A DNA stretch of 64,000 nucleotides, taken from Escherichia phage AV128. Below the pieces are notes generated by a model. The model ran no database searches. It was given only the letters and a program-made list of their open reading frames with translations, and was not told the DNA's origin. The stretch is from the sequence record OR352958.1, one strand, 5' to 3'. Position 1 is the stretch's first letter, and each line of letters opens with the position of its first letter. The translations under genes were made by a program, and so were the position numbers. Below, in pieces: positions 1 to 61,755 of this stretch.

Positions 1-33
1 TGGGTGCTTTCTTATTAAAATATTGAGGTTAAC

Positions 34-282
34 ATGAATAAAAATGAATCAGTAGCATTCTTGCAATGGCTGGAAGGCGTGGTGGAGTATCGCGCGACAA
101 GCGACCGTTTCATCTTTCAAGGCAAAAGCTTCAAGCGCAAAGGACAAGCCCAGAAAGCAGCGCGTAAGTACTGGAAGGAAGTTTATTCAGAATTTTTCTC
201 TCAAATGGGAATCATCGGTGCAACCGTATCCGGCGACCCTGCGCAGTTGGTATCGATTGATGAATCCAATCGTTACAATTAA
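34..282 (+). CDS. hypothetical early protein (82 aa)
   Basis: ATG at 34 with GAGG upstream; track ORF; no motif recognised. Confidence 0.5.
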   Translation: MNKNESVAFLQWLEGVVEYRATSDRFIFQGKSFKRKGQAQKAARKYWKEVYSEFFSQMGIIGATVSGDPAQLVSIDESNRYN

Positions 283-297
283 TAAACCGATTTGAAT

Positions 298-320
298 GCC
301 GCGCTATGCGGCTTTATTAT
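298..320 (+). terminator. intrinsic terminator
   Basis: GCCGC-loop-GCGGC hairpin followed by TTTATTAT just after stop of 34..282. Confidence 0.45.
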
Positions 321-355
321 AGTTATTGTTAATCACCCTCATGAAAGGTAATGAT

Positions 356-736
356 ATGTCAAATAAGAATGATTCTATTCACAACACATATACTAAAGGC
401 AGCGGAATGGCCTTTGGTGGAAGCATCAAAATTAACGTGCCATCTTGCGATTATGATGGATTGGAAGTCGGCAACCGCGACTTAACATGGGTTTTACGTC
501 GCCAATCCGATTTAGAAGAGAAGCTGGAAAATATTGAGCGTTCTCTTGAAAGTCTTCGCGACCAGCTTTTTGGTTGTCCTGAAGATGAGTCAAAACCTGA
601 ATCACATGCAGCCAATCGCGGTTTGATTGATAATATGCTTGCTATTACCGCTCGATCAATTGGTAAAACTGTGTCCATTGAATCATTGATCAGCCAGATT
701 GCGGATGGCTTTGGTGATGCCCATAAGAGTGAATAG
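356..736 (+). CDS. hypothetical early protein (~126 aa)
   Basis: track ORF 326..736 opens at TTG; in-frame ATG at 356 has AAGG about 7 nt upstream (ATG 341 also possible). Confidence 0.45.
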   Translation: MSNKNDSIHNTYTKGSGMAFGGSIKINVPSCDYDGLEVGNRDLTWVLRRQSDLEEKLENIERSLESLRDQLFGCPEDESKPESHAANRGLIDNMLAITARSIGKTVSIESLISQIADGFGDAHKSE

Positions 737-1384
737 TGGGTGTTGCTGATTTAACCGTGAATCGTGGGTCGCTGTGGCGGCCCTTTCTTTTGCCTGCCGC
801 GCAGGAGTGTACTGCAAATTTACTGTGGGCACAAAATAGTACGGTACTGTCTAGGACTTTTTCTTTGAAAAGTTAGTGGACCAAATGTGTCGTATTTTGA
901 TTAGTGTACTGCAAATTTCATCAAGTACCAAAACGCACCAAAAGACCCATGCCCTAAAAACCACACGAACGCAATAATCAATCGCCGTTACAGTTTCCAG
1001 CGTTACAATTAGAAAGCGAATGATTCGATGCATAATAATATGAAACATAATGATTCGAAAGCGAATGATTGCGTGTAGGATAATATCGGTGGGGATTATT
1101 ATATATGTCGGTAATTTCGCATGCGTACTATTTTCGGGCGAAGGGTCGGCATATTCCTCGTTTTAGTTCGGAACGAAGGGAAAGTTTTGCGCCTTTATAA
1201 AACAACGACTTACGCGACCCGCCTTAACGGTCCGATATAGGTGTCTATATAAAACAAGGACTTGCGCGATGTTCTCCATTTAACGTAATACCTGTTATGC
1301 GAACTAAGGAGCATCTCGAAGAAGATTATGCGACGACGAAGGGAAGGATAAAGGAGTTTTCGCGTAGGAGCGCACCGAGATAGG

Positions 1385-1413
1385 GACGAAGAAAAGCCGC
1401 GACTAAGCGCGGC
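1385..1413 (-). terminator. intrinsic terminator (minus-strand RNA)
   Basis: GCCGCG-loop-CGCGGC hairpin (1396-1413) followed on minus strand by CTTTTCTTCG; 20 nt downstream of stop of 1434..1724. Confidence 0.5.
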
Positions 1414-1433
1414 CTATTAGTAACGGAAGGGTA

Positions 1434-1724
1434 TTATAAGGAGACGATTTTAAAATAAGTCACTTCGCCGCCGAGTTGCGGTACAGCGATATATTCGCCG
1501 CCGATTTCGGTAATCGTATAGACGAAGCCGTTAATCGTTACGCGGCAGGATACGATGTCCTCGTCGCGATACTTGTAAAGGTCGAGGAAGTTGATCGGCT
1601 CATAAATAGACTCGATAGTTGCGTCGACGTTAGAGAGATAAACGCTCTCTAAGGTTTCGCCAAATACGTTAGAGTTTTCGGAAGTCTCGACGCGAGCGGA
1701 ACGGATAGCGGCTAAAGTAATCAT
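1434..1724 (-). CDS. small acidic protein, paralog A (96 aa)
   Basis: ATG with AGGAG upstream; protein shares segments with ORFs 2010..2312 and 2537..2821 (e.g. SVYLSNVDATIES vs EVYAANVDQTIEA). Confidence 0.55.
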   Translation of the reverse strand: MITLAAIRSARVETSENSNVFGETLESVYLSNVDATIESIYEPINFLDLYKYRDEDIVSCRVTINGFVYTITEIGGEYIAVPQLGGEVTYFKIVSL

Positions 1725-1748
1725 AATAATCTCCTAGTTGGTCGGGCG

Positions 1749-1769
1749 GGTAGCGACCTATTCGCTACC
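1749..1769 (-). promoter_or_regulatory. 5-prime leader stem-loop of paralog A transcript
   Basis: GGTAGCG-7nt-CGCTACC inverted repeat between promoter and RBS; same position in paralog C leader carries GTTAACG-7nt-CGTTAAC (compensatory changes). Confidence 0.4.
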
Positions 1770-1791
1770 TCATCCCCTCTCGATATAAAAC

Positions 1792-1820
1792 ATTATAGTC
1801 TTAGTGTACGAAGAAGTAAA
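1792..1820 (-). promoter_or_regulatory. sigma70-like promoter for paralog A
   Basis: on minus strand TTTACT-N17-TATAAT; 19-nt block CTTTACTTCTTCGTACACT conserved upstream of paralog B. Confidence 0.45.
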
Positions 1821-1839
1821 GCACTTTTCGTTATTTTTT

Positions 1840-1992
1840 CTATTTATTTAAAGCGCGTCTCCCAAGTTCGACGACCCAAGCGGCGGCATCTTCCGCCTTA
1901 TTAAATTCGTATAGATGCTTCTTATCTTCGAAGACGTAAAATAAAATACGTCCGAACTTATTAGCCTTCGCGCTTAACTCGATAGTTTTCAT
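1840..1992 (-). CDS. micro-ORF (50 aa), hypothetical
   Basis: ATG at 1992 with AGGAG 5 nt upstream; below the track's 60-aa cutoff; lies between paralog B and the paralog A promoter. Confidence 0.3.
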   Translation of the reverse strand: MKTIELSAKANKFGRILFYVFEDKKHLYEFNKAEDAAAWVVELGRRALNK

Positions 1993-2009
1993 CTTCTACT
2001 CCTTTTTCG

Positions 2010-2312
2010 TTATTTTGCGATAAAATATTTATAAGCCTTATCGCCTTCTACGTCGATATACTCGACGATAATTAACGCTTCGCCGCGCGGCGTAACCGTC
2101 TCGATAAGGGTAACGGCTTCGTCGTCGGTCTTCGCGAAGCGGATGGCACTACGTTCGGCGTACTTAATATCGTCGAAGGAAAGGCCGACGAAAGCGACCG
2201 CGCGGACCTTAATGATGGTGGATTCTAGTTCCGCGTTAACGGCGGCGATAAGAGAACGAACGGTTAAACGGTCTTCGTCGTAAGTAATGATAGAAGAGAT
2301 TAAAGTGGTCAT
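2010..2312 (-). CDS. small acidic protein, paralog B (100 aa)
   Basis: track ORF 2010..2369 trimmed to ATG at 2312, which has GGAG upstream; paralogous to 1434..1724 and 2537..2821. Confidence 0.55.
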   Translation of the reverse strand: MTTLISSIITYDEDRLTVRSLIAAVNAELESTIIKVRAVAFVGLSFDDIKYAERSAIRFAKTDDEAVTLIETVTPRGEALIIVEYIDVEGDKAYKYFIAK

Positions 2313-2368
2313 AATAAAACTCCCGATGCTAGTAGAAGGAAGGGCCATCGCCCGTCTCGATATAAACA

Positions 2369-2396
2369 AGTATACGCGAGTGTACGAAGAAGTAAA
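2369..2396 (-). promoter_or_regulatory. sigma70-like promoter for paralog B
   Basis: on minus strand TTTACT-N16-TATACT with the conserved CTTTACTTCTTCGTACACT block. Confidence 0.4.
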
Positions 2397-2440
2397 GAAA
2401 AAAGATAAAATAATTTATCTCATTTTTATCGAAAAAGTGC

Positions 2441-2468
2441 TTTACTTTTTTCTACACTATATTATAAT
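2441..2468 (+). promoter_or_regulatory. sigma70-like promoter for paralog C
   Basis: TTTACT-N16-TATAAT; divergent from the paralog B promoter. Confidence 0.45.
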
Positions 2469-2492
2469 GTACTCATATCGGGACGGGATGAG

Positions 2493-2513
2493 TTAACGAA
2501 TAGGTCGTTAACG
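2493..2513 (+). promoter_or_regulatory. 5-prime leader stem-loop of paralog C transcript
   Basis: GTTAACG-AATAGGT-CGTTAAC immediately upstream of CAACTAGGAG RBS. Confidence 0.4.
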
Positions 2514-2536
2514 CCTCTCCCAACTAGGAGTTTAAA

Positions 2537-2821
2537 ATGGCTATTCTTAACGTTTCTTCTATTCGTAACGCTATCGTCGAGAACTACGGCGTAAAACAAA
2601 TTTTATCCGAAGTCTACGCCGCGAACGTAGACCAAACTATCGAGGCGGGTGGGGTAACGGTCGCCGAGGCGTTTAAACTTTACGCGGCGTTACCGGAATC
2701 GGACCGCGAAGCCTTCGAAGTAAACGTTAACGGATATTTCTTCGAAGCGGTCGAAATCGGTAATATCTTACTCGTTATGGGCGAAGAAGAATTTGAGACC
2801 TTCTCCCTCGTCGAAGCGTAA
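2537..2821 (+). CDS. small acidic protein, paralog C (94 aa)
   Basis: ATG 2537 with AGGAG; about 18 Asp/Glu vs 4 Lys/Arg; paralog of A and B. Confidence 0.55.
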   Translation: MAILNVSSIRNAIVENYGVKQILSEVYAANVDQTIEAGGVTVAEAFKLYAALPESDREAFEVNVNGYFFEAVEIGNILLVMGEEEFETFSLVEA

Positions 2822-2901
2822 GAGAGGATTTTTAGAGCGTCGTGCGCGGCGCTTTAATAAAATTCTTTCGCGCCTAGCGCCCTAACAAATAGGAGTTTAT
2901 T

Positions 2902-3528
2902 ATGGTTAGCTTAAATCGCTTTTCTACTAGCGGCGACGTTATCGCAACTAAGACCGCCGACCTCGTTGCATTCTATAATGCAAATTCCGGCTCAAAACCG
3001 ATTAAGAAGTTTGCGGACCGCCGGACCGCCGAGACTCGCGTAATCGCGTTAATCGAGTCCTTAAACGCGCTCGATGAGCCGTCCAACGAGTCGCCCATCC
3101 CTGACGCGAAGCCGCGCGAGGAAGTGTCCAGCGATGTAAAAACGCATAAGGCGCGTGCGGTCGTTAAAAAGGCCGAGCCGACCCAGGAAGAACTCGATGC
3201 GATGAGCGATGAAGAGTATGAAGCCTTCGTTAAGAGCGGCTTAAACGATAGTGCAAATTGCGTAGTGCAAAATGGAACTCCTTCCCATCGCCGTTCGAAT
3301 AGCGAAGGTATTGCAAAAAGTTGGGATAACAAGGAAGTGGCGCAAAAGCGTCTCACCCGTAACGGCGTTATTGTCGAGGGTGTAGGAGAGTTCAAATCGG
3401 TCCGCGTAGCGTTTGCTGCGCTGGGCTTACCAGATAGCAAGCACATTCGCTTCCGCATGAAGCTTAAAGAAGCTGGACGCTTGAACTTCGAGTTCGGCAA
3501 CAAGTCCTACACCTTCCAGATCATCTAA
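2902..3528 (+). CDS. hypothetical early protein (208 aa)
   Basis: ATG with AGGAG upstream; contains two in-frame copies of the ATAGTGCAAAT motif (3248-3275). Confidence 0.5.
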   Translation: MVSLNRFSTSGDVIATKTADLVAFYNANSGSKPIKKFADRRTAETRVIALIESLNALDEPSNESPIPDAKPREEVSSDVKTHKARAVVKKAEPTQEELDAMSDEEYEAFVKSGLNDSANCVVQNGTPSHRRSNSEGIAKSWDNKEVAQKRLTRNGVIVEGVGEFKSVRVAFAALGLPDSKHIRFRMKLKEAGRLNFEFGNKSYTFQII

Positions 3529-3534
3529 TCGAAT

Positions 3535-3560
3535 GGCGGCCCTTCGGGGTCGCTTTTCAT
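3535..3560 (+). terminator. intrinsic terminator
   Basis: GGCGGCCC-TTCG-GGGTCGC hairpin then TTTTCAT after stop of 2902..3528. Confidence 0.5.
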
Positions 3561-3578
3561 AGTGCAAATTGGTGGCTT

Positions 3579-3842
3579 ATGAACACGCTTATTCTCATCG
3601 CTACGTTGTCCATCGGAAGTGGTCGCGCCTTATCCCTTTATGACCATAGTGCAAATTGCGCTTACCCAACGCGCGTTGCGGCGATAGTTAATAGTGCAAA
3701 TCGAATGCTATTTGAGACTTGTTGGCGGGTAGATAACGAGAAAGGGCGCATCGTCTTAGGTTATAGTGCAAATCTGCTGGTGGAGTCGTTCGATTGGACG
3801 GCGGAAGGTCGTAAATTGTTACGTAAAGTGACTAAAAGATGA
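3579..3842 (+). CDS. doubtful ORF (87 aa) lying over the motif array
   Basis: ATG with GGTGG upstream, but three motif copies fall in-frame (each read as Ser-Ala-Asn); may be non-coding. Confidence 0.2.
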   Translation: MNTLILIATLSIGSGRALSLYDHSANCAYPTRVAAIVNSANRMLFETCWRVDNEKGRIVLGYSANLLVESFDWTAEGRKLLRKVTKR

Positions 3843-3901
3843 CTTATAATAATACACTTTCTAACGCGTTTATGGTTGTAGCCTTCCCCGTCGTATTACC
3901 G

Positions 3902-3944
3902 ATGGCCCTAGAAGTTGAGAAAATGTGTTCTAGGGCCATTTTAT
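3902..3944 (+). terminator. intrinsic terminator / stem-loop
   Basis: perfect 12-bp inverted repeat ATGGCCCTAGAA...TTCTAGGGCCAT with 14-nt loop followed by TTTAT. Confidence 0.45.
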
Positions 3945-3956
3945 AGTGCAAATTGG

Positions 3957-4445
3957 CTAGTGGCGGGAGAATTGCTCACCCTCTTTGGCTGCCTCTCCAA
4001 AATCCTTGTAGAAATCGTCCATGGAACGGCCCATTTTACTATTGCCATTTTCATCAATCATCGTGATGCCGTAGATGATATTCAGTTCACGGATAGCATT
4101 AAGCTTGGCTGATGCCGCGACTTCTGGATCACGCACAAGCTTCACTAAATTGTGGATGGAACTCTTTACGCTCCACAATTCCTTCAATGGCATCTCTTCC
4201 ATACGCTTTTTGTAGCGCATCTTGTAGTACGGATTGCGCTGCGTGCAGAGGATTCGCTGGCCAGTGTAGTTATCGGTCGCAACCTCCATGCCAAATACTA
4301 GTGCAAAAGCTGCGCGCATGTCATGGCCCTGAATAACAAGGTCAATGAACTCATCGAATAAAGCCTGATTGTGCTCTGCAAATCGCGGGTCTTCAAAGTC
4401 CTCAGGCATCGCTACATAATCTTGACTCATAGTGCAAAATCCCAT
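3957..4445 (-). CDS. hypothetical protein (162 aa)
   Basis: track ORF; both candidate ATGs (4445, 4430) sit inside motif copies and lack a clear RBS. Confidence 0.4.
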   Translation of the reverse strand: MGFCTMSQDYVAMPEDFEDPRFAEHNQALFDEFIDLVIQGHDMRAAFALVFGMEVATDNYTGQRILCTQRNPYYKMRYKKRMEEMPLKELWSVKSSIHNLVKLVRDPEVAASAKLNAIRELNIIYGITMIDENGNSKMGRSMDDFYKDFGEAAKEGEQFSRH

Positions 4446-4656
4446 AGTGCAAATTAATAGTGTGAATTATACAATGATTGAACATTATATTCAAGTGCAG
4501 ATTGATGTTCAAATTGGCTGTAAACGTACACAAACCATAGTGCTGAATGAATATCGGACCGTGGTGCGTGGTGTACTGTTTGATACGTATAAAAGAAATC
4601 CATCCCTTTCGCCGCTTGTTATGCAAATCAATGACTTAGCCGCTGCTGGATGGTTG

Positions 4657-4945
4657 AAGCGTATCATGAAGTATCATCCGTATTGCCGCAAGTCTTTGTT
4701 TTTACTTATATCTTACGGATGATACGTATAAATATAAGTTTAGTATAAGTATGAGGATGTAGAAAAAAATTAATTTAAATTAATTCAAAATGGAGTTAAT
4801 TGTTTTTTTTCAAAGTTGTATAAAGTATAGCGGCGACGCGTATCATCCGTATCATCCGTAAGATGTACCACTGAACCCAGTCGCGGCGCACCATAGAAGT
4901 GTGTGGAGTGAACTACGGATAGGTCCAAATCTTACGTCATTATAC
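4657..4945. repeat. iteron/AT-rich palindromic element, copy A
   Basis: tandem 9-bp units GTATCATCC in direct and inverted orientation around an AT-rich core; 46-bp block nearly identical to 57322-57367. Confidence 0.6.
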
Positions 4946-4999
4946 GCTTAAATTCTATGCGTAAGGTTAGCCAGCTAACTATATCTCCTTTTTAATTTC

Positions 5000-5225
5000 A
5001 AGCGGCAATCCCATAGACGGCGCAGCCTACAGGCCCACACACCACGGTACACGCTCCAATTCCTAGTGATTCCCTCTACAATCCCACAGCACCACAGTAC
5101 AATATTCTTCCAAATACGCACACATATTCAAGACACACAAATCACGTCACAATCCTCGTTTCACACCATCCTCTAATAGATTTACACAAATCAATCGCTT
5201 TATCCGATAATAAAGCCTCACAAAC
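5000..5225 (+). other. CA-rich, G-poor strand-asymmetric tract
   Basis: runs such as cccacacaccac, acacatattcaagacacacaaatcac; dense ACA triplets; no ORF. Confidence 0.5.
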
Positions 5226-5230
5226 AACAG

Positions 5231-5256
5231 GCAAACAAAAAGGGCCAATCGGCCCT
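5231..5256 (-). terminator. intrinsic terminator ending the minus-strand early/middle operon
   Basis: AGGGCC-GATT-GGCCCT hairpin followed on minus strand by TTTTTGTTTG, just past stop of 5274..5726. Confidence 0.55.
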
Positions 5257-5273
5257 CTTAACATTAGTCAAAA

Positions 5274-5726
5274 TTAAAATATAAAATTCTTCACTCCTAG
5301 CCTTTTAAATTCTTTCCTTAACATTATATTAAACTTCTTCAATTTAGTTTTATTCATCCTTAGCGGATTGTAGGTGAACACCTTTTCTATTACTTCCTCG
5401 CTCATTTTTGAGCGCATATTAGTTGCGTAATAGTTCTTGAACGTATAAATAAGGTAATTTGCTTCAAGCTTAAGTTCAATTACTTCCTCCGATTCATCAA
5501 GCTCAAGCAATCCTCTTTGCGTAAGAATATCTCTTAATATATCCTGACATTTCTTGCAATCACCTTTGCCTAAAAGCGAGTCGATATAATCGCCGCTGAC
5601 GCGCTCATCACCGAAATATGTTGCGCGACCGCAAAGGCTTTGCACTTCTCCTTCGTCAAAGTAATGCGCACGATGGCCCCACTTCGGTATGGCCCAACCA
5701 GCGGCGATAAGCCGTTTGCCCATCAC
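5274..5726 (-). CDS. hypothetical early/middle protein (150 aa)
   Basis: track ORF, last gene of minus-strand operon. Confidence 0.5.
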   Translation of the reverse strand: MMGKRLIAAGWAIPKWGHRAHYFDEGEVQSLCGRATYFGDERVSGDYIDSLLGKGDCKKCQDILRDILTQRGLLELDESEEVIELKLEANYLIYTFKNYYATNMRSKMSEEVIEKVFTYNPLRMNKTKLKKFNIMLRKEFKRLGVKNFIF

Positions 5727-53840: not shown

Positions 53841-54980
53841 TTAGATACCAGTCATACGGACGACTGCGAAAGGACGCTTGAGCAGAACGCCTGCTGTTGC
53901 GTTTGCGTAGTCTTCAACGTAGCTCTTAGCACGTTTCTCAACGCCCAGAGTCATGAACTTAGTCTGAACCAGCTGGCTGAATACGGAACCATCGTCGCTT
54001 GAGCCATCAATTGAGGAATCGATGTGATCAGCGTACAGATATGCCACGTTCAGGAAAGTCGGGTCACTGCCAAGTGCGCCGTTGAGTTCCGGTGCAGATT
54101 TGATCTTCATCTTCGGATAAGTCTGGGTGATCCAGTCACGTACAGAAATACCGAAGTCAGTGGTGTTTGACAGCCAATCAATAGAGTTGGTCGGCAGCGC
54201 CAGAGTCATATCAACCTTCTCTGGATCAATCTGGTCCTGAGAGTTGACACGGATTTGACGAACCATCAAACGGATGTCTGCAGTCACCTGTTGGAAGGTC
54301 GCAGTGGCCCAGCCGGAAGTGGTGTTTGAAGTCATCGCTGCTGGCAGGTTTGGATCATTCAGGAAGCCGAACGTGCGGTTGTTCCCGTTGTACCAGCCAT
54401 AGAAGCCGATTGCGTTACGCATGATTTCCAGAGATACAGCAGCCTGCTGGCGCTTGGTCTCTGCGGAGTTCAGACGCATCGCAGACGCGCGACCTTCTTC
54501 CAGCATACCGACTGCCATGCCCATTTCACCGCGAACGATGGAACGTCGCTCAAAGTTTACGTTCCAGCTTGCCAGAGGAATAGAGGTGAAATCACCATAT
54601 TCAACTGCGGTGCCAGCTGGTTCAACGATGCCCTGAACGATTTCCGCATCTTCCCACTGACCAACGGTGTCAATGCCAACCAGCTCGTCGATTTTACGAG
54701 CAGCGGTCATGATTTTGACGAAGCCAGGCAGCCACTGTTGCAGGAACTGCAGCGGGGTCGGGATTGATGGCGTGGTCTGCGGCGCAGTAAACGCGGCGTC
54801 ACCTACGCGGAAAGCGCCTGCACGGTTTAAGTGCTCAATCTGATCACGCACAATCGCGGAATCAAACACAATACCGATACGAGCAAGCTGGGAAACAGCC
54901 GCGTCGGTGACGGATTGCATATCAAAAGGGCGCACCTTGCTCGCTGGGAGGCGAGAGTGTGTTTGGCTAATGCGAGTCAT
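53841..54980 (-). CDS. major capsid protein
   Basis: 379 aa, follows protease/scaffold and a small structural gene; typical size and order. Confidence 0.55.
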
Positions 54981-54994
54981 TATTCACCTGCCTA

Positions 54995-55612
54995 TTAACG
55001 AGTCAATTGTACAATGGTATAAGTGGAAGACTGGACGCTTGGGCCGGAAAGGGCAATAGTCGTCGGGTCAATCACAATACCGCCTGGGATGGCAACCATG
55101 CCAGTTGGCAATGAGCCAGTATAGGCGATAATTGCACCAATAGGCAAGTTGTTCGGGTTGTTACCGCTGGAAATGCCTTTAGGTACATAAGCAAGCAGGT
55201 CGCCATAGTTAAGCGTCTGCGGACTGGTGCTTGGGTTGAATACTTCAACTACGAGGCCCGTGCACATATCGTAGAACTCGCCTTCGCTATATTGAGGCAG
55301 AACCATGCTGGCACCCAAAGGACCAGTAGAGTTGCCATACAGCGCGTAACGCTTGCTATTGCCGAGGATGCCGTAGTAGTTAGTGCCGCCCAGCTCAACT
55401 TCAAAGTCCTGCGCGCCCAAAGTTTTGGTTTGACCAGTACCCATTAAGGATACGTCAGTCTTAAAACCGAACACACGGCTGATGGCGTTTACGTTTGCGC
55501 CTTCGTTAGCGTTGGCAATTCGGCCTGGCTTCCCACGCTGTGGGCCGTCGCGAACGATGTCGCCAGGAAAGCCAGTTGTATATTGACGGCCTACACTAGT
55601 TTGGAAAGTCAT
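54995..55612 (-). CDS. capsid-associated structural protein (decoration or scaffold-like)
   Basis: Gly-rich ~205 aa between protease/scaffold and capsid genes; start trimmed to MTFQTSVG. Confidence 0.4.
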   Translation of the reverse strand: MTFQTSVGRQYTTGFPGDIVRDGPQRGKPGRIANANEGANVNAISRVFGFKTDVSLMGTGQTKTLGAQDFEVELGGTNYYGILGNSKRYALYGNSTGPLGASMVLPQYSEGEFYDMCTGLVVEVFNPSTSPQTLNYGDLLAYVPKGISSGNNPNNLPIGAIIAYTGSLPTGMVAIPGGIVIDPTTIALSGPSVQSSTYTIVQLTR

Positions 55613-55614
55613 GT

Positions 55615-57033
55615 TTATTCCCCTTTCAACCAAGCTTCAAATGCTTCGTCAGTTGCTGCAGAATCCGCAGCAGCCTTTTGTTTTGCGACTACACGCTGTT
55701 TTTGACCGTGTTCAACGCCGCGCAGATAATTATCCACCACGTCAAACTCAGCACCATCAACGCACTTCAAGCCTAACTTTTTAGCGCCATATTTCGCTAC
55801 GGACTTGGAGTCCATAGTTGCATGATCAAAGGCACCAACAACTTTAGACAGGCGCTGGTAGAGGCTATTCTTACGAGCAGAATCAGCGTAGAAAGCAGCA
55901 ACTGCTGAATCAGATGCCATTGAGTGTTCCCCTTTTGCTGGACCTGGCGACGCTTTCGCCGCTTTTGTCGGTTTGTCATCTTTTTCGACCGAAGCCCCCT
56001 TTACGTTGCTGTTTTGCAGGCCGCTAACCACATCTTCAGCTTTGTCGCAAGGTGATACATCTTCAGCCTTGACTTCAACTTCTTCGTCTTTGACTTCGGC
56101 TTCAACTTCTTCTTCATCACCTACCGCGCCACCTTTCAGTTTTGCAATAAGTGCTTCGATTTGGCTGATCAGTTGCGGAAGCTCGCCGTCAGCGTGAGAT
56201 TCAGTTTCAACTTCAAACTTCTCTTCACCTTCTGGAGTCTCTTCAGCTTCTGCTTTAACTTCTGGATCAACCATCACTTCTTCATGTTCTTCGGTTGAAT
56301 CCTTCTCTTCTGCTTTCACTTCGACTTCGTCCTGATGAGCAGCTTCGGTGCTCTCTTCATTCAGAAATTGTTCGAGCGCAGGGATCAGTGATTTCAGCTG
56401 TTCAACAGCATTATCACGCGCTTTACCTTTTAACGGTTTTGGCATGTCTAAATCCTCGTTGGATGGTGTTACAGTCGTCAAACAAAGATGGTCAAAGCAA
56501 CGACCATCCAGCACCCGTGCACCTGGTACTCGACCAACGTCCACGAGAGCAATGTGGTTGCCGCGAAGAGTTGTCTGTACCACTTCATACGGCTGCCCGT
56601 CAAACTCTCCAGACTGTATGATGAATTCACAGTCATAGCCCAAAGACAAGTCAACCTTTCCAGAATCGATGGCCTTCTTCAGACGGCGGCTAAAAACTTT
56701 GAGGTCGCCGCGCATCCATGGCTTGTCATAATAAACATTGCCAGTTAGAACGCCATCAACACCATACTCTTCGGGTGCTGTGTTATCCTCATCACCTTCG
56801 AATCCAGAAAGCATTTCGTGATTGTCGATGAAAGGGATATTTTTGAATGAATCTATCGCTTCGGGGTCTTTCACCGCTGACTCTGGGCGATAAACTTTTA
56901 CGATGCGATTCGGATCACCATCAAGTCCAACCTGACCTGCAGAATAGTCAAAAATGCCAAATGACGAAATGGGACAACCCACAATCGTCAAGAATCCATT
57001 TTTGTCAATTTCGCGTGCCGTTTGCATTCGCAT
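55615..57033 (-). CDS. prohead protease / scaffold fusion-like protein
   Basis: N-terminal globular domain then long Glu/Lys/Val-rich acidic coiled coil; ATG with GAGGGTGG upstream. Confidence 0.45.
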   Translation of the reverse strand: MRMQTAREIDKNGFLTIVGCPISSFGIFDYSAGQVGLDGDPNRIVKVYRPESAVKDPEAIDSFKNIPFIDNHEMLSGFEGDEDNTAPEEYGVDGVLTGNVYYDKPWMRGDLKVFSRRLKKAIDSGKVDLSLGYDCEFIIQSGEFDGQPYEVVQTTLRGNHIALVDVGRVPGARVLDGRCFDHLCLTTVTPSNEDLDMPKPLKGKARDNAVEQLKSLIPALEQFLNEESTEAAHQDEVEVKAEEKDSTEEHEEVMVDPEVKAEAEETPEGEEKFEVETESHADGELPQLISQIEALIAKLKGGAVGDEEEVEAEVKDEEVEVKAEDVSPCDKAEDVVSGLQNSNVKGASVEKDDKPTKAAKASPGPAKGEHSMASDSAVAAFYADSARKNSLYQRLSKVVGAFDHATMDSKSVAKYGAKKLGLKCVDGAEFDVVDNYLRGVEHGQKQRVVAKQKAAADSAATDEAFEAWLKGE

Positions 57034-57143
57034 CCACCCTCAAATAAGTATTGTGTATTATATCTAATGAAAAAAACTTAGGCAAACAATAATTATGGTT
57101 TGAATATGTATAACAACCGATATAGCCGCGCCTTAATTAGTGT

Positions 57144-57425
57144 GATACGGATGATACGGATAAAATGAGGCGTATTTTTATCCGTATCGGTGTATAAGCC
57201 GCGCTATCACTGGTGTGCTACGGATGATACGGATGATACGGATACTTTTCATATATAAGAGTTTATAAAAAAAATAAAATTAAATTAGATATATAATTTT
57301 AAATTAATTTATTTGAATTCCTATAAAGTATCGCGGCAACGCGTATCATCCGTATCATCCGTAAGATTCTTTTGAAAACAACTACTTACTTGATACGGAT
57401 GATACGTCATTATACGCGTAAAACC
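57144..57425. repeat. iteron/AT-rich palindromic element, copy B
   Basis: GATACGGAT units at 57144-57162, 57218-57245, 57392-57406 and rc GTATCATCC at 57343-57365 around an AT-rich core; homologous to 4657-4945. Confidence 0.6.
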
Positions 57426-57450
57426 CTGCGGCAATCCATTGCCAGGCGAT

Positions 57451-57588
57451 TCAGTGAATATTAAAAAGCACTCCAGCAACTAAAACGCCAATCAGCATCG
57501 AGTCGTAAACAGCCCATTTCCAAGAAAGCAAAGAGTTGCAATTAATATTTCGCACTTTAACGTAACGTGACTGAATAATCTTTTGCAT
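57451..57588 (-). CDS. micro-ORF, small membrane protein (45 aa)
   Basis: ATG with AGAGGAAG upstream; hydrophobic MLIGVLVAGVLF; below track cutoff. Confidence 0.35.
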   Translation of the reverse strand: MQKIIQSRYVKVRNINCNSLLSWKWAVYDSMLIGVLVAGVLFNIH

Positions 57589-57598
57589 AACTTCCTCT

Positions 57599-58526: not shown

Positions 58527-59378
58527 TCAAATGATTGGTATTTTTCTGCACTTGCAGTGTATCGCCCATCCAGGAGGACCGATGTCACCCTTTTTGAACT
58601 TCAACTCTCCGCCCACTTCCCATAGACGCTTGTCATCAAGTTTGAATCTCATTCCGTCGACATGTTCATGAGAGATTCGCGGCTCCTTTCCTGCTCCTGA
58701 GTGCGCCCATTCAAATTCTTCAACTCCATTCTGGCGCATCCTTTCATCGCTTAGAACGCAATACAATTTGCTTGTCTGGTCTTTAGCGATTAAGTCGACT
58801 CTCTTTGCAGAGAAGTGTTTTACGTTTCGCAGCGCCGCCTGAATGCCTGACGTGCCTTGCTGGGCTGGGTCGGGCGAAGTCAGCGAAAGCATTACTGCTT
58901 CGTACACTCTGTTGTGAATGTCCTCGCCAACCTTAGTCACTAGAGTCGTGTTAAACGTCTCGCTTGTTCTAAGAGTGTTCTCAACGAATTTGTTATATGT
59001 GGCCTTTGGCGCTTCTATGCCTGCGGACTTAAGGCTTGCGAATGTAGCAGAAGTGGCACCCTTTTCGACCGATTTGATAAAATCAGCGGCAATCTTCGAC
59101 CCAACACGTGCAAACGCCCTTGCCCATTTCAGCTGCAGACGTTTCATAAGAGTCTGGAATGTTGAATCAGCAGAGTCTTGCGCAAAGAACTTCTGCACCT
59201 GCTTCTTTTCAAGCCACTCTGAAATTCCTGCCTGATAGTCATCAATCATCGCATAGCAAAGACCTTTCATCTCACGACGGTAGGCCATCGCAATAGCGTT
59301 TGATGGGATTATCGGACTGCCGCGCCCGATTCTATCGGGTGAGCGGCGTTCACGTTTTTTCGAAGCTTTAAAAGCCAT
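58527..59378 (-). CDS. head morphogenesis protein (MuF/SPP1 gp7-like), putative
   Basis: position between portal and head genes; basic N-terminus; start trimmed to MAFKASKK. Confidence 0.45.
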   Translation of the reverse strand: MAFKASKKRERRSPDRIGRGSPIIPSNAIAMAYRREMKGLCYAMIDDYQAGISEWLEKKQVQKFFAQDSADSTFQTLMKRLQLKWARAFARVGSKIAADFIKSVEKGATSATFASLKSAGIEAPKATYNKFVENTLRTSETFNTTLVTKVGEDIHNRVYEAVMLSLTSPDPAQQGTSGIQAALRNVKHFSAKRVDLIAKDQTSKLYCVLSDERMRQNGVEEFEWAHSGAGKEPRISHEHVDGMRFKLDDKRLWEVGGELKFKKGDIGPPGWAIHCKCRKIPII

Positions 59379-59379
59379 A

Positions 59380-61755
59380 TCAACCTTGCTTCGGTGAATT
59401 AGTAGGATTATTGAGTGCTCCGTATGCTTGAGAGCAATCACCCTTCAACCACTCCTTGAATGAGTTCACATCTAATTCGTGGATTGAGTCGAATCCGTTC
59501 CAACCGTTACCAAATGATGCTTGATAAGCTTCTTTCGCTTCTTCTGCTGAATCGAATCCAAGCATACACTTGTGTTCATCAAACTCGCCAGAGTAGTTAT
59601 CGTTTTGGTTCACGATAAAGACTTTCGGCGACTTCAGATTTGGACCCACAAAGCAGTCGACTTCATCACCGTCTGCGCCCTTGGTGCCCTTGATGAATCC
59701 GTAGTGGTGCGGCATCTTCACGGCCCATTCACCGTCAAGGCTGTTTCCTCTACGAATGCTGTTTCGCGGATTCTCAATGCCAAGAATCATTCCGTGCAAC
59801 TTCATCTTAGGTAATGATGCTGCGTCCATTTTACCCACGTTGTGGCGTAAGTTGACGACGTGTCCTTTAACGCTTGGAAGGGTAGACGGTTGCACCGACC
59901 GTGAATCTTTTTGAGGGTCAAAATCCACATCCTGACCTTCTTTCAGGTAGTAATCCGCAATACCCTCCAGACCTTCTTTCAACTGCGTTAGGACATCAAC
60001 CTGATGGCTTGATTCATCATCGGTATCGTCCATGTTGATTTCGACAGGCGCTTTGTCAGGGTTTTCCGCCAACTCACCACGCGCGGCACCCTCTGGCATA
60101 ATACCTGTTTCACTATAGAACTGGCCGCCCATCTTAACGACATCAGCTTTCGCCTGTTCAATATCGGCCTTACCTTGCAGGACTTCACCAGCAGACTTGC
60201 CAAGCAATGCCATATTCTCTGGAGACATCCCTGGGGTTTCTTCTGCTGCGTCTTCCGGCAGACGGTTGTAGCCGCTGTTTTTGTCGTCTTTGATGCGGTC
60301 GCGCTCTTCATCAGGAGAAATGACGCCAGCATCAATAAGAGTTTTGCCAGTGTTGGCTCGCTTATCATTGATTTCTGCAAGTTGAGTAGCAGTAAGTGAG
60401 CCAACTGGTTCCCATGCAACCTTAACATCGACGTCCACCCCTTCTGATTTGAGAAGGATTTTGTAATGGCGGTCGAGAATTTTTGTCAGGTCATGCTGCT
60501 GGCACGTTTCCAACTCTTCGTGATAGCTGACCATCTCGAATTCACCAGTGGCGTTAAAGCCTTTTGGCGAAGTCCCAAGCAGTTTGGTCGACGGAACTTT
60601 TGCGATTGCGGCCACTAGCTGGTACTGGTTCATGATGATGCTGTCGAAGTCTGACAAGTTGATGTCAAACTGGTCCATCTCTTCTTTTTGTCCAAGCACT
60701 TTGACTGCATAGTTGTCGCGGTACTTGATCCACATCATCAGACGTTCTGCAAAAGACCGCTCATTGGCAATCGCCTTGTCAACGTCGGTCCGCAGCGTGG
60801 TTGTACGCTTGGACATCGCCAGCAATGGCGCTTCGTTAGCGGTACGTTCAGCGGCATAGATGCGTTCATAAATCTGCTGAGTCAGAGGAATGCCGCCGTA
60901 AATATAAGTTGGCTTGAGAATATCAGCTGGCTCATCATTGCGCAAGATGATGAGGTGACTTCGATGATAACGTTGTCCGCTGATCACCCAGTATTCTGGA
61001 TCATAGAAGTGCTGTGATGCAGGGTCTGCGGTATTTTCAGACGTCAAAAATGGCATCATCCAATAAGGGTCAACCTGAATGATTCCCTTATAAGACCCCT
61101 TTGTCACACCATCAATGTTAAAAGGCTTGCTGTAATATTCTGGGTCATCGCTACGCACATCAAATATGATGACGCGGATACCAAAAATATTTTTGAATCG
61201 TTCGGCTTCAACTAAGTGCTCTTTGATATTAAATTCTTTATCAATTTGCTTTAGGCGTTCGCTTGCCTGCACAGACAATTCTGATTCAGAGCTTGATTTT
61301 ACTTCCCAACCTTTACGCACTGCATCACGGCCTACCATAGAGCAAGCCTTGTTTACCAGCCAGTGTTGCGCGATAATTGCGCAAGCTTGATAGCCGATAA
61401 ATGATTGCGACAAGTACCAGTTTTGCAACTGAATAGGTACTGTATATGGATTCACCTGCCCTTCTGAACTGATGTTCTTTAAGGCATTATCCATAACCTT
61501 TTTGGATACGGTTGCTGAATCTACTGAGCGACCTTTGATGATTGCAACACCGTCCCCGTTGATATCAGGCTCATACAAAGGAAAGTCATCAACGGTTTTA
61601 AAGGTCGGGCGGTTGCTTTCGGTCTTATCCCAGCGTTGACCGCTGCCGCGCCTTTCCAGGCGTTCGAACGGTGCCAATGGGTCGCCTGGCGGCATCTCCG
61701 CTGGTTCGGCTTCTGGTTGCGTCTTCTCCCAGAGTTTTATGCCAAGAATTTTCAT
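59380..61755 (-). CDS. portal protein with C-terminal extension
   Basis: about 790 aa between terminase and head morphogenesis gene; start trimmed to MKILGIK (AGGTGG upstream); C-terminal ~150 aa carry a pyrophosphatase-like DGDEVDC signature. Confidence 0.5.
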   Translation of the reverse strand: MKILGIKLWEKTQPEAEPAEMPPGDPLAPFERLERRGSGQRWDKTESNRPTFKTVDDFPLYEPDINGDGVAIIKGRSVDSATVSKKVMDNALKNISSEGQVNPYTVPIQLQNWYLSQSFIGYQACAIIAQHWLVNKACSMVGRDAVRKGWEVKSSSESELSVQASERLKQIDKEFNIKEHLVEAERFKNIFGIRVIIFDVRSDDPEYYSKPFNIDGVTKGSYKGIIQVDPYWMMPFLTSENTADPASQHFYDPEYWVISGQRYHRSHLIILRNDEPADILKPTYIYGGIPLTQQIYERIYAAERTANEAPLLAMSKRTTTLRTDVDKAIANERSFAERLMMWIKYRDNYAVKVLGQKEEMDQFDINLSDFDSIIMNQYQLVAAIAKVPSTKLLGTSPKGFNATGEFEMVSYHEELETCQQHDLTKILDRHYKILLKSEGVDVDVKVAWEPVGSLTATQLAEINDKRANTGKTLIDAGVISPDEERDRIKDDKNSGYNRLPEDAAEETPGMSPENMALLGKSAGEVLQGKADIEQAKADVVKMGGQFYSETGIMPEGAARGELAENPDKAPVEINMDDTDDESSHQVDVLTQLKEGLEGIADYYLKEGQDVDFDPQKDSRSVQPSTLPSVKGHVVNLRHNVGKMDAASLPKMKLHGMILGIENPRNSIRRGNSLDGEWAVKMPHHYGFIKGTKGADGDEVDCFVGPNLKSPKVFIVNQNDNYSGEFDEHKCMLGFDSAEEAKEAYQASFGNGWNGFDSIHELDVNSFKEWLKGDCSQAYGALNNPTNSPKQG

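Follow-up and report, generated by a model that had tools for sequence, protein, structure and literature searches.

The repeat-flanked, AT-rich palindrome at positions 4659-4952 of the window (the whole 64-kb stretch of phage DNA analysed here, from a Wifcevirus, an E. coli myophage with a genome of ~68 kb) is, on balance, best explained as a pac-type packaging recognition and cutting site, in a phage that would package unit-length genomes with a direct terminal repeat of ~3.85 kb. This element, copy A, points to a packaging site because a physical genome end, placed there by relatives, lies inside it, directly upstream of the small terminase gene, terS. A related element, copy B (57143-57422), has no reported genome end; judged from its sequence, it is probably a second copy of the protein-binding module and binds the protein that binds copy A.

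Two copies of a repeat-flanked palindrome

Exact matches to the unit GTATCATCC number 10 in the window, and all fall inside two clusters: 4671, 4717 (minus strand), 4840 and 4849 in copy A, and 57149, 57222, 57231 and 57397 (all minus strand) together with 57343 and 57352 in copy B. Dinucleotide shuffles of the window, by comparison, averaged 0.32 matches, with 2 the most seen in any of them. Both clusters are also picked out by the 8-mer ATGATACG, which has one further site, at 4660. The original prediction, that such repeats occur in both orientations around an AT-rich core and that the arrangement is present twice, is borne out by these matches; of the units that it placed at 4661-4684, the first (4659-4667, CGTATCATG) is imperfect. 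When the copy A region (4440-5130) was compared with the whole window by blastn, copy B was the sole match (46 bp, 95.7% identity, E=1e-15), accompanied by shorter repeat matches, and the 46-bp blocks at 4819-4864 and 57322-57367 differ at exactly two positions, as had been claimed. Likeness in layout extends beyond this block: in a pairwise alignment, it spans ~300 bp and takes in the outer ACGTCATTATACGC, and the flank ACGTCATTATACGC(T/G)TAA, noted earlier as shared, is indeed present at both copies. Copy B lies 15.7 kb from copy A around the circular map. Both are nested imperfect inverted repeats (quasi-palindromes) around an AT-rich core, centred at ~4787 in copy A, where the following features were distinguished.

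4654..4729: terS-side repeat array, with CGTATCATG at 4659, GTATCATCC at 4671 (plus strand) and GGATGATAC, the minus-strand unit, at 4717
4654-4673 and 4933-4952: outer inverted-repeat arms
4707-4729 and 4845-4867: inverted-repeat arms
4727..4838: AT-rich core, 78% AT
4762-4775 and 4798-4811: inner inverted repeat of the core
4768-4785: perfect 18-bp palindrome in the core
4819..4867: distal block common with copy B, TATAAAGTAT-GCGGCGACGC followed by tandem GTATCATCC at 4840 and 4849 and the arm 4845-4867
4876..4897: the 22-mer CCCAGTCGCGGCGCACCATAGA, non-coding, one copy within the window; its minus-strand form ends in CTGGG
4933..4952: outer repeat ACGTCATTATACGCTTAA, inverted relative to 4654-4673 and also found in copy B at 57403-57422

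The features of copy B and its surroundings are these.

57057..57085, minus strand: sigma-70-like promoter match from a consensus scan, just upstream of the head maturation protease gene
57143..57243: protease-side repeat arrays, with TGATACGGATGATACGGAT at 57143 and tandem GGATGATAC units in the arm 57219-57240
57153-57165 and 57176-57188: small hairpin
57219-57240 and 57342-57363: perfect 22-nt inverted pair
57241..57341: AT-rich core, 82% AT
57273-57287 and 57305-57319: inner inverted repeat of the core
57322..57422: distal part, comprising the 46-bp block 57322-57367 with tandem GTATCATCC at 57343 and 57352, then TGATACGGATGATACG at 57391-57406, then ACGTCATTATACGCG
57467..57489, minus strand: terminator-like hairpin from a consensus scan, after a 46-aa ORF; it closes the upstream late transcription unit before copy B

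The window as a whole is 54% AT. A search of 4300-5400 against Rfam returned no credible family, the best being mcrA, whose 16 bits fall below the threshold of 57.6. Copy B is set between the terminator-like hairpin and the promoter match of the head protease-scaffold-capsid operon, whose protease gene (identified from the annotation of relatives) starts at ~57027-57033 on the minus strand. Copy A had been described as lying where early transcription converges. The end of a minus-strand early operon does lie there, but the site is not a simple convergence point, the other side being the start of terS, also on the minus strand. Small ORFs in 4446-4974 (4454..4603, 4509..4667 and 4785..4928 on the minus strand; 4432..4722 on the plus strand) were treated as non-coding, because they are broken or variable among relatives and carry substitutions without third-position bias. 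The plus-strand frame, which had been suspected of being spurious, contains in-frame stop codons in 6 of 10 relatives. The 46-aa ORF upstream of copy B (57430-57590, minus strand) has a C-terminal half that appears hydrophobic by eye, and ORFs of 45-49 aa occupy the equivalent position in Bas101, LMA2 (gp20) and MyoSmar (gp080). It was considered as a DNA binder and rejected, since its sequence resembles a small membrane protein.

Both loci are matched, at fixed positions, by each of 28 Wifcevirus GenBank records. Identity at copy B is 95-99.8% throughout the 28 records; copy A is fully colinear in 10, and in most of the others likeness ends at 4864, right after the tandem repeats. An alignment of copy A from 10 genomes showed 4446-4802 to be nearly invariant, with the terS-side repeat array invariant or nearly so and AAAATGGAGTTAATT, which surrounds the cut described below, invariant. 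Right of 4802, the clade of WFC, TH32, Eco4M-7 and Bas98 is unalignable, yet WFC, TH32 and Eco4M-7 have kept TATCCGTATCATCCGTAAGAT in copy A despite these flanks and carry extra GTATCAT-type units, and Bas98 has the related form GTATCATCCGTATCAGCG. In copy B, the 306 non-coding base pairs from 57020 to 57325 hold 4 substitutions and 2 indels among six genomes, compared with ~12 substitutions per 100 bp in the coding DNA beside them; Bas101 has lost one 9-bp unit, in the distal part. A motif kept amid unalignable flanks, and a copy B far less varied than the adjacent coding DNA, argue that the repeats are under selection.

These data bear on the alternative, raised with the original prediction, that the element is a MITE-like mobile palindrome present twice, and likewise on a chance origin of the repeats. 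Terminal inverted repeats and two similar copies are what recommends a mobile element. However, both copies sit at fixed positions in 28 of 28 Wifcevirus records, and the two-locus layout is syntenic, with different sequences, in MyoSmar and the Pbunaviruses (see below). Outside the genus, the 18-mer had only three matches in IMG/VR, all of which read as chance occurrences within coding-like sequence, and chance would account for 0.3 matches to the unit in the window rather than 10. Fixed synteny in 28 genomes and two other genera, with genus-specific repeats, rules out an insert or a chance repeat, and the probability that we leave to either is close to nil.

Single-strand folding of both copies is far stronger than that of shuffled sequences (z = -4.2 for copy A and -7.0 for copy B). 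This hairpin or cruciform potential, together with repeats around a core of 100-112 bp that is 78-82% AT, would also suit one or more replication origins, at which the repeats bind an initiator and the core serves as the unwinding element, possibly with transcription providing the primer, as it does at T7 phi1.1A/B and phiOL/phiOR or T4 oriF/oriG. A polymerase, helicases and primases are among the phage's own gene products, and the homologous core in a Pbunavirus carries a promoter. On the other hand, the genes next to copies A and B are terS and the head protease gene, neither copy has an initiator-like gene beside it, and the primase genes are >11 kb away. DnaA boxes (TTWTNCACA) have no match inside either copy, and the units form chiefly inverted pairs rather than a phased direct array. 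Cumulative GC skew has no switch at copy B and is in any case uninformative, since its switches track gene strand, and what functional data exist on elements of this kind bear on DNA ends and a transcription start rather than on replication. A replication origin or centromere, the function favoured in the original prediction, thus has no direct support, and we regard an origin as unlikely, including one at copy A that would coincide with a packaging site in the manner of phiOR in T7 pacB.

The predicted genome end beside terS

Four records of relatives, those of WFH, WFC, Ro157lw and Mansfield, begin at window position 4791/4792 (...AAAAT/GGAG, the slash marking the cut), and sequence identity with these relatives suggests that the genome of AV128 ends there as well. 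The Mansfield end was set by PhageTerm (PMC6753283), and a terminal repeat of ~3.7 kb has been reported for WFH and WFC (PMC6563267). The relevant features of the window are listed below.

901..941: predicted left boundary of the terminal repeat, cut at 940/941, TTAGTGTAC-N24-CGCACCA/AAAGACCC
3957..4445, minus strand: small terminase gene terS; phmmer match to PDB 7UXE 'Small terminase', E=7.4e-33, residues 7-152
4466..4512, minus strand: two overlapping sigma-70-like promoter matches proximal to terS, TTGAAC-17-TATAAT and TTGAAT-17-TATAAT, from a consensus scan only
4791..4792: predicted physical genome end and right boundary of the direct terminal repeat, ...TTCAAAAT/GGAGTTAATT

In copy A, the AT core thus contains the end, which is about midway between the inverted GTATCATCC arrays, at a distance of 6 bp from the 18-bp palindrome and 346 bp from the start codon of terS. 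A pac-type site is expected to hold a genome end and to adjoin terS; copy A adjoins terS and, going by four relatives and by PhageTerm for Mansfield, appears to hold the end. The 3.7-kb direct terminal repeat of the relatives is at odds with a cos site. The core of copy B is without AAAATGGAGTTAATT, the sequence found at the copy A cut.

The direct terminal repeat, ~3.7-3.85 kb in relatives, would correspond in AV128 to window positions 941-4791 (~3.85 kb). At its left boundary, the end of the WFH record and the repeat feature of the Mansfield record agree to the base on a cut at 940/941; the WFC record ends ~80 bp farther left, at ~860 of the window. No GTATCATCC repeats were found at this boundary (901..941), and these repeats are therefore not required at every cut. 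The left end of Serratia phage MyoSmar has the 9-mer TTAGTGTAC, the 7-mer CGCACCA and the 40-nt distance to the end, all as in the window; the left boundary thus looks like a cut site conserved across genera. Because the interval 941-4791 contains terS, the gene should be present twice in each virion DNA, and its right-end copy would be severed from everything right of 4791, the distal 46-bp block included. A further copy of AGTGTACTGCAAATTT occurs at 806-821. Inside the left boundary, 1012-1075 contains the local repeats GCGAATGATTCGA, CATAATGATTCGA and GCGAATGATTGCG, and 1140-1430 contains several repeats of the CGAAGGGAA and TATAAAACAA(C/G)GACTT(A/G)CGCGA types, none of them related to the 9-bp unit at a significant level. 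The GAATGATTCG repeats in this area were considered as degenerate 9-bp units and dropped, since AATGATTCG, with one mismatch allowed, was observed 31 times against 26.6 expected.

The assignment of terS follows from the match to 7UXE, which we take to be the TerS decamer of Pbunavirus E217; identity to AV128 TerS, estimated from the alignment, is ~45% over the aligned region. The Mansfield record labels the orthologous gene as terminase small subunit. Pfam gave no match for terS or the neighbouring genes, and PHROGs gave families of unknown function only (phrog_4783 for terS). In E217, TerS is a decamer, its gene is ~58 kb from the large terminase gene, and the protein, homologous to that of AV128, showed no appreciable DNA binding in vitro (PMC9611059). 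The two terminase genes are separated in the window as they are in E217. The promoter region upstream of terS is nearly invariant in the 10 genomes and analogous in position to the mapped start P041 of phage 14-1. Between these promoters and the repeats, an invariant block holds an IHF-consensus match, AATCAATGACTTA at 4626-4638; it is weak, and the window has 9 such matches.

We envisage that the repeat arrays on both sides of the core would be bound by a sequence-specific protein, for which the ring-shaped small terminase is the likeliest candidate, and that this protein would wrap or bend the AT-rich core between them, presenting it to the large terminase for the initiating cut at 4791/4792. 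Packaging would then run toward terS, through the terminal repeat and around the genome, and would stop at the separate conserved left-boundary site (CGCACCA/, 940/941) after one genome plus one repeat.

Paired elements in other genera

Wifceviruses, which are reported to replicate unusually fast, have been described as distant kin of the Pseudomonas Pbunaviruses. MyoSmar and Pbunaviruses also have paired elements, and in both the two members are syntenic with copies A and B, one preceding terS and the other the head protease gene, so that an element at these positions, of the kind the original prediction recommended looking for in related phages, is present in 28 Wifcevirus genomes and two other genera. 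MyoSmar, whose TerS shows ~35% identity, has a PhageTerm-predicted terminal repeat at 1-3559, with terS ~390 bp inside the right end. A 52-bp block (85% identity) and the 15-mer AAAAAACGAAAAGTA occur both in the region of the repeat end and in the 470-bp gap that precedes the head protease gene, and the core 9-mer CGAAAAGTA is confined to those two loci in the ~61 kb of genome searched. The 22-mer CCCAGTCGCGGCGCACCATAGA of copy A is identical in MyoSmar at 3634-3655, 75 bp outside the repeat end; across the two genera its distance from that end is ~75-86 bp, in non-coding DNA. An inverted copy at 3349-3372 of MyoSmar lies inside the repeat, CCCAGTCGCGGCGCACCATAGA there forming a 26-nt inverted repeat across the end. 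In IMG/VR, CCCAGTCGCGGCGCACCATAGA was found in two Wifcevirus contigs and MyoSmar only. CTGGG, in which its minus-strand form ends, is also the core of a phage-specific promoter motif reported for 14-1, a connection that we treat as a lead only.

In Pbunavirus LMA2, 915 bp separate the primase gene from terS, and this gap has in common with the one that precedes the protease gene an 86-bp block (81% identity) with TAATTTGG repeats and inverted GAAAGCCTCGCGGCAC units. Each genus thus has its own sequences common to both loci, GTATCATCC in Wifcevirus, AAAAAACGAAAAGTA in MyoSmar and TAATTTGG in LMA2, and this matching of genus-specific sequences at two loci argues for one co-evolving DNA-binding factor.

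Published Pbunavirus data bear on both ends and transcripts. For JG024, the proposed pac cut is at 59,376: out of 161 long reads, 36 begin within ± 5 of it, and gel analysis showed a pac fragment to match. The cut belongs to the terS-side element but is ~45 bp beyond its AT core, and the records of BrSP1, Pa193 and phage 109 open at exactly the equivalent base, GCGAAAAT/CGATTGC. From these ends it follows that an A-type element marks the packaging start both in a genus reported to package by the headful mechanism and in one with an exact terminal repeat. For 14-1, cap-selective transcript mapping placed a sigma-70-type start, P040, at 59399 on the plus strand. It also gave terS and the protease gene a proximal upstream start each, P041 and P014 respectively; the promoter match at 57057..57085 of the window is equivalent in position to P014. 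The 50 bp upstream of P040 consist of the AT core and shared block of the terS-side element, and the homologous module is therefore also a promoter carrier. Because the quasi-palindromic core blocks an orientation match of the shared block between Wifcevirus and Pbunavirus, we keep promoter homology as a lead.

It is conceivable, though less probable than a packaging site, that the elements are transcription-control modules, with the repeats serving as operators or activator sites for a phage-encoded regulator and a promoter contained in the AT core. The two copies would then drive or time terS and the head protease-scaffold-capsid operon, and the genome end would be set by signals present only at copy A. 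Besides the P040 upstream region, this explanation draws on the setting, each copy lying upstream of a minus-strand gene, between the end of a transcription unit and a proximal promoter, and it accounts for the existence of two copies. The 46-bp block read on the minus strand has the order repeat-repeat-GCGTCGCCGC-TATACTTTATA, with TATACTTTA present in 14-1 as well, and AT-rich boxes and intergenic motifs of PB1-like phages have earlier been noted as possible phage-specific promoter signals. However, we found no consensus promoter inside either Wifcevirus AT core. In copy B of Bas101 and WFC, TATAAAGTAT is replaced by TATATGGTAC or TATATAGTAC, which disrupts the candidate -10 element, and the WFC clade diverges at the TATAAAGTAT block in copy A too. 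Moreover, GTATCATCC is absent from every other late or middle promoter region of the 64-kb window, and the position of the cut, at the centre of the palindrome in two genera, is left unexplained.

A packaging site, a transcription-control module and an origin are not mutually exclusive. Because the 14-1 core coincides with promoter P040, the module common to A and B may be primarily transcriptional, or an origin, with a cut signal added only at A. A purely packaging role does not account for copy B, whose role may be to regulate or coordinate head-gene expression, to serve as a promoter or origin-like module, or to form a pair with copy A. A more speculative proposal, to which we give little weight, is that one co-evolving protein, most plausibly decameric TerS, binds both modules and either couples the initiation of packaging to head-gene expression or joins the two sites; its scope would be the lineage of Pbunavirus, Wifcevirus and Myosmarvirus. 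Also counting against the packaging reading are the left boundary, with its lack of GTATCATCC units, the in vitro result for E217 TerS, and Xanthomonas phage Carpasina (NC_047962), in which a 960-bp gap after the primase gene (54040-55000) contains an AT-rich core flanked by CTCGCGGCGTAT repeats. Nine small genes lie between this A-like element and terS, and a second copy was not detected before the protease gene. The motif TCGCGGC was considered as a family-wide signal and set aside, being too frequent, with 28 occurrences in the window; it clusters locally in LMA2 and Carpasina.

Known packaging sites

Among known sites, the layout of copy A comes nearest to the P1 and SPP1 pac sites and to lambda cosB. 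In P1 pac and lambda cosB, repeats flank the cut or lie beside it, and the lambda site has small-terminase sites in both orientations beside the cut site and the terS gene. The pac site of SPP1 (pacL-pacC-pacR) has been described in PMC9611059. The P1 and SPP1 sites resemble copy A in having short recognition repeats on both sides of a central region of first cutting, a bendable AT-rich centre, and a location at or just upstream of the small terminase gene with packaging toward terS. They differ in that P1 and SPP1 package by headful with imprecise later cuts, whereas relatives of AV128 have exact ends bounding a direct terminal repeat of 3.7-3.85 kb. In addition, the AV128 repeats form a large quasi-palindrome with a twin copy 15.7 kb away, and their binding by TerS is putative. 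Lambda cosB (R1-R3 for gpNu1 and an IHF site, by cosN) likewise combines direct and inverted sites next to the cut and terS, the IHF parallel in AV128 consisting of the single weak match at 4626-4638. In contrast to copy A, however, lambda has staggered nicks, cohesive ends, no terminal repeat and repeats on one side of the cut.

The T7 junction unites a promoter and an AT-rich stretch with an inverted repeat that can fold into a hairpin, and similar modules serve internally as origins. Like this T7/T3 junction (pacB, phiOR and the hairpin intermediate), copy A would be at the right boundary of a direct terminal repeat. The parallel in Wifcevirus comprises the terminal repeat and the inverted repeats, a promoter having been mapped only in the homologous element of 14-1. 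T7 differs in its 160-bp repeat, in the absence of repeat arrays and in having its own RNA polymerase; the Bas101 annotation contains no RNA polymerase gene. A homologous genomic position is held by the putative JG024 pac and 14-1 P040 locus, which lies between the primase operon and terS, is accompanied by a homologous TerS, is cut after AAAAT and has an AT core (TTTAAAATTAAT...) similar to that of copy A. Unlike Wifcevirus genomes, that of JG024 is reported to be circularly permuted and headful packaged; its repeats (CCGGTAATT and TAATTTGG) differ from the copy A unit, and its cut is outside rather than inside the AT core. In T4, two separate pac-like sequences, in genes 16 and 19, have been proposed to be bound by TerS rings in a twin-ring synapsis (PMC9611059); these are short, lie in coding DNA and have no defined ends, whereas the AV128 copies are large intergenic palindromes, one of which is predicted to hold an exact end.

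Earlier work already covers the terminal repeat with its boundaries, the annotation of TerS in Mansfield, the proposed pac site of JG024 and P040 of 14-1, and papers on PB1-like phages mention AT-rich boxes and intergenic motifs without giving their function. In the literature searched, we found nothing on the repeat-flanked palindrome at the boundary of the Wifcevirus terminal repeat, on its twin ahead of the head genes, on a paired element or second copy in Pbunaviruses, or on the conservation of the paired element across genera. To our knowledge, no recognition sites have been described for phages with long, exact terminal repeats, a group for which copy A would be a rare candidate. How small terminases recognize viral DNA is still unsettled (PMC9611059), and for TerS of the E217 type a structure exists without a known DNA target. 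The presence of short, defined repeats flanking a base-exact cut beside a homologous TerS makes this question directly testable. The conserved twin, with its genus-specific common sequences, hints at a link between packaging and head-gene control. Pbunaviruses are therapy phages, and the cis-acting packaging signals of these phages and of Wifceviruses also matter for genome engineering and rebooting.

A minor feature recurs near these elements in four genera. After copy A, on the same strand, window positions 5035-5200 form a strongly CA-rich, G-poor stretch with short repeats of the CCAC/CAAC type, and similar stretches, likewise on the strand of the element, occur in MyoSmar (3740-3880 and 1-120), LMA2 (59400-59650) and Carpasina (54570-54690). 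In MyoSmar, the left repeat end too is followed by such a stretch. Relative to terS, it is on the far side of the element in Wifcevirus and MyoSmar and on the near side in Pbunavirus. The stretch could be a leader sequence or a Rho-loading region.
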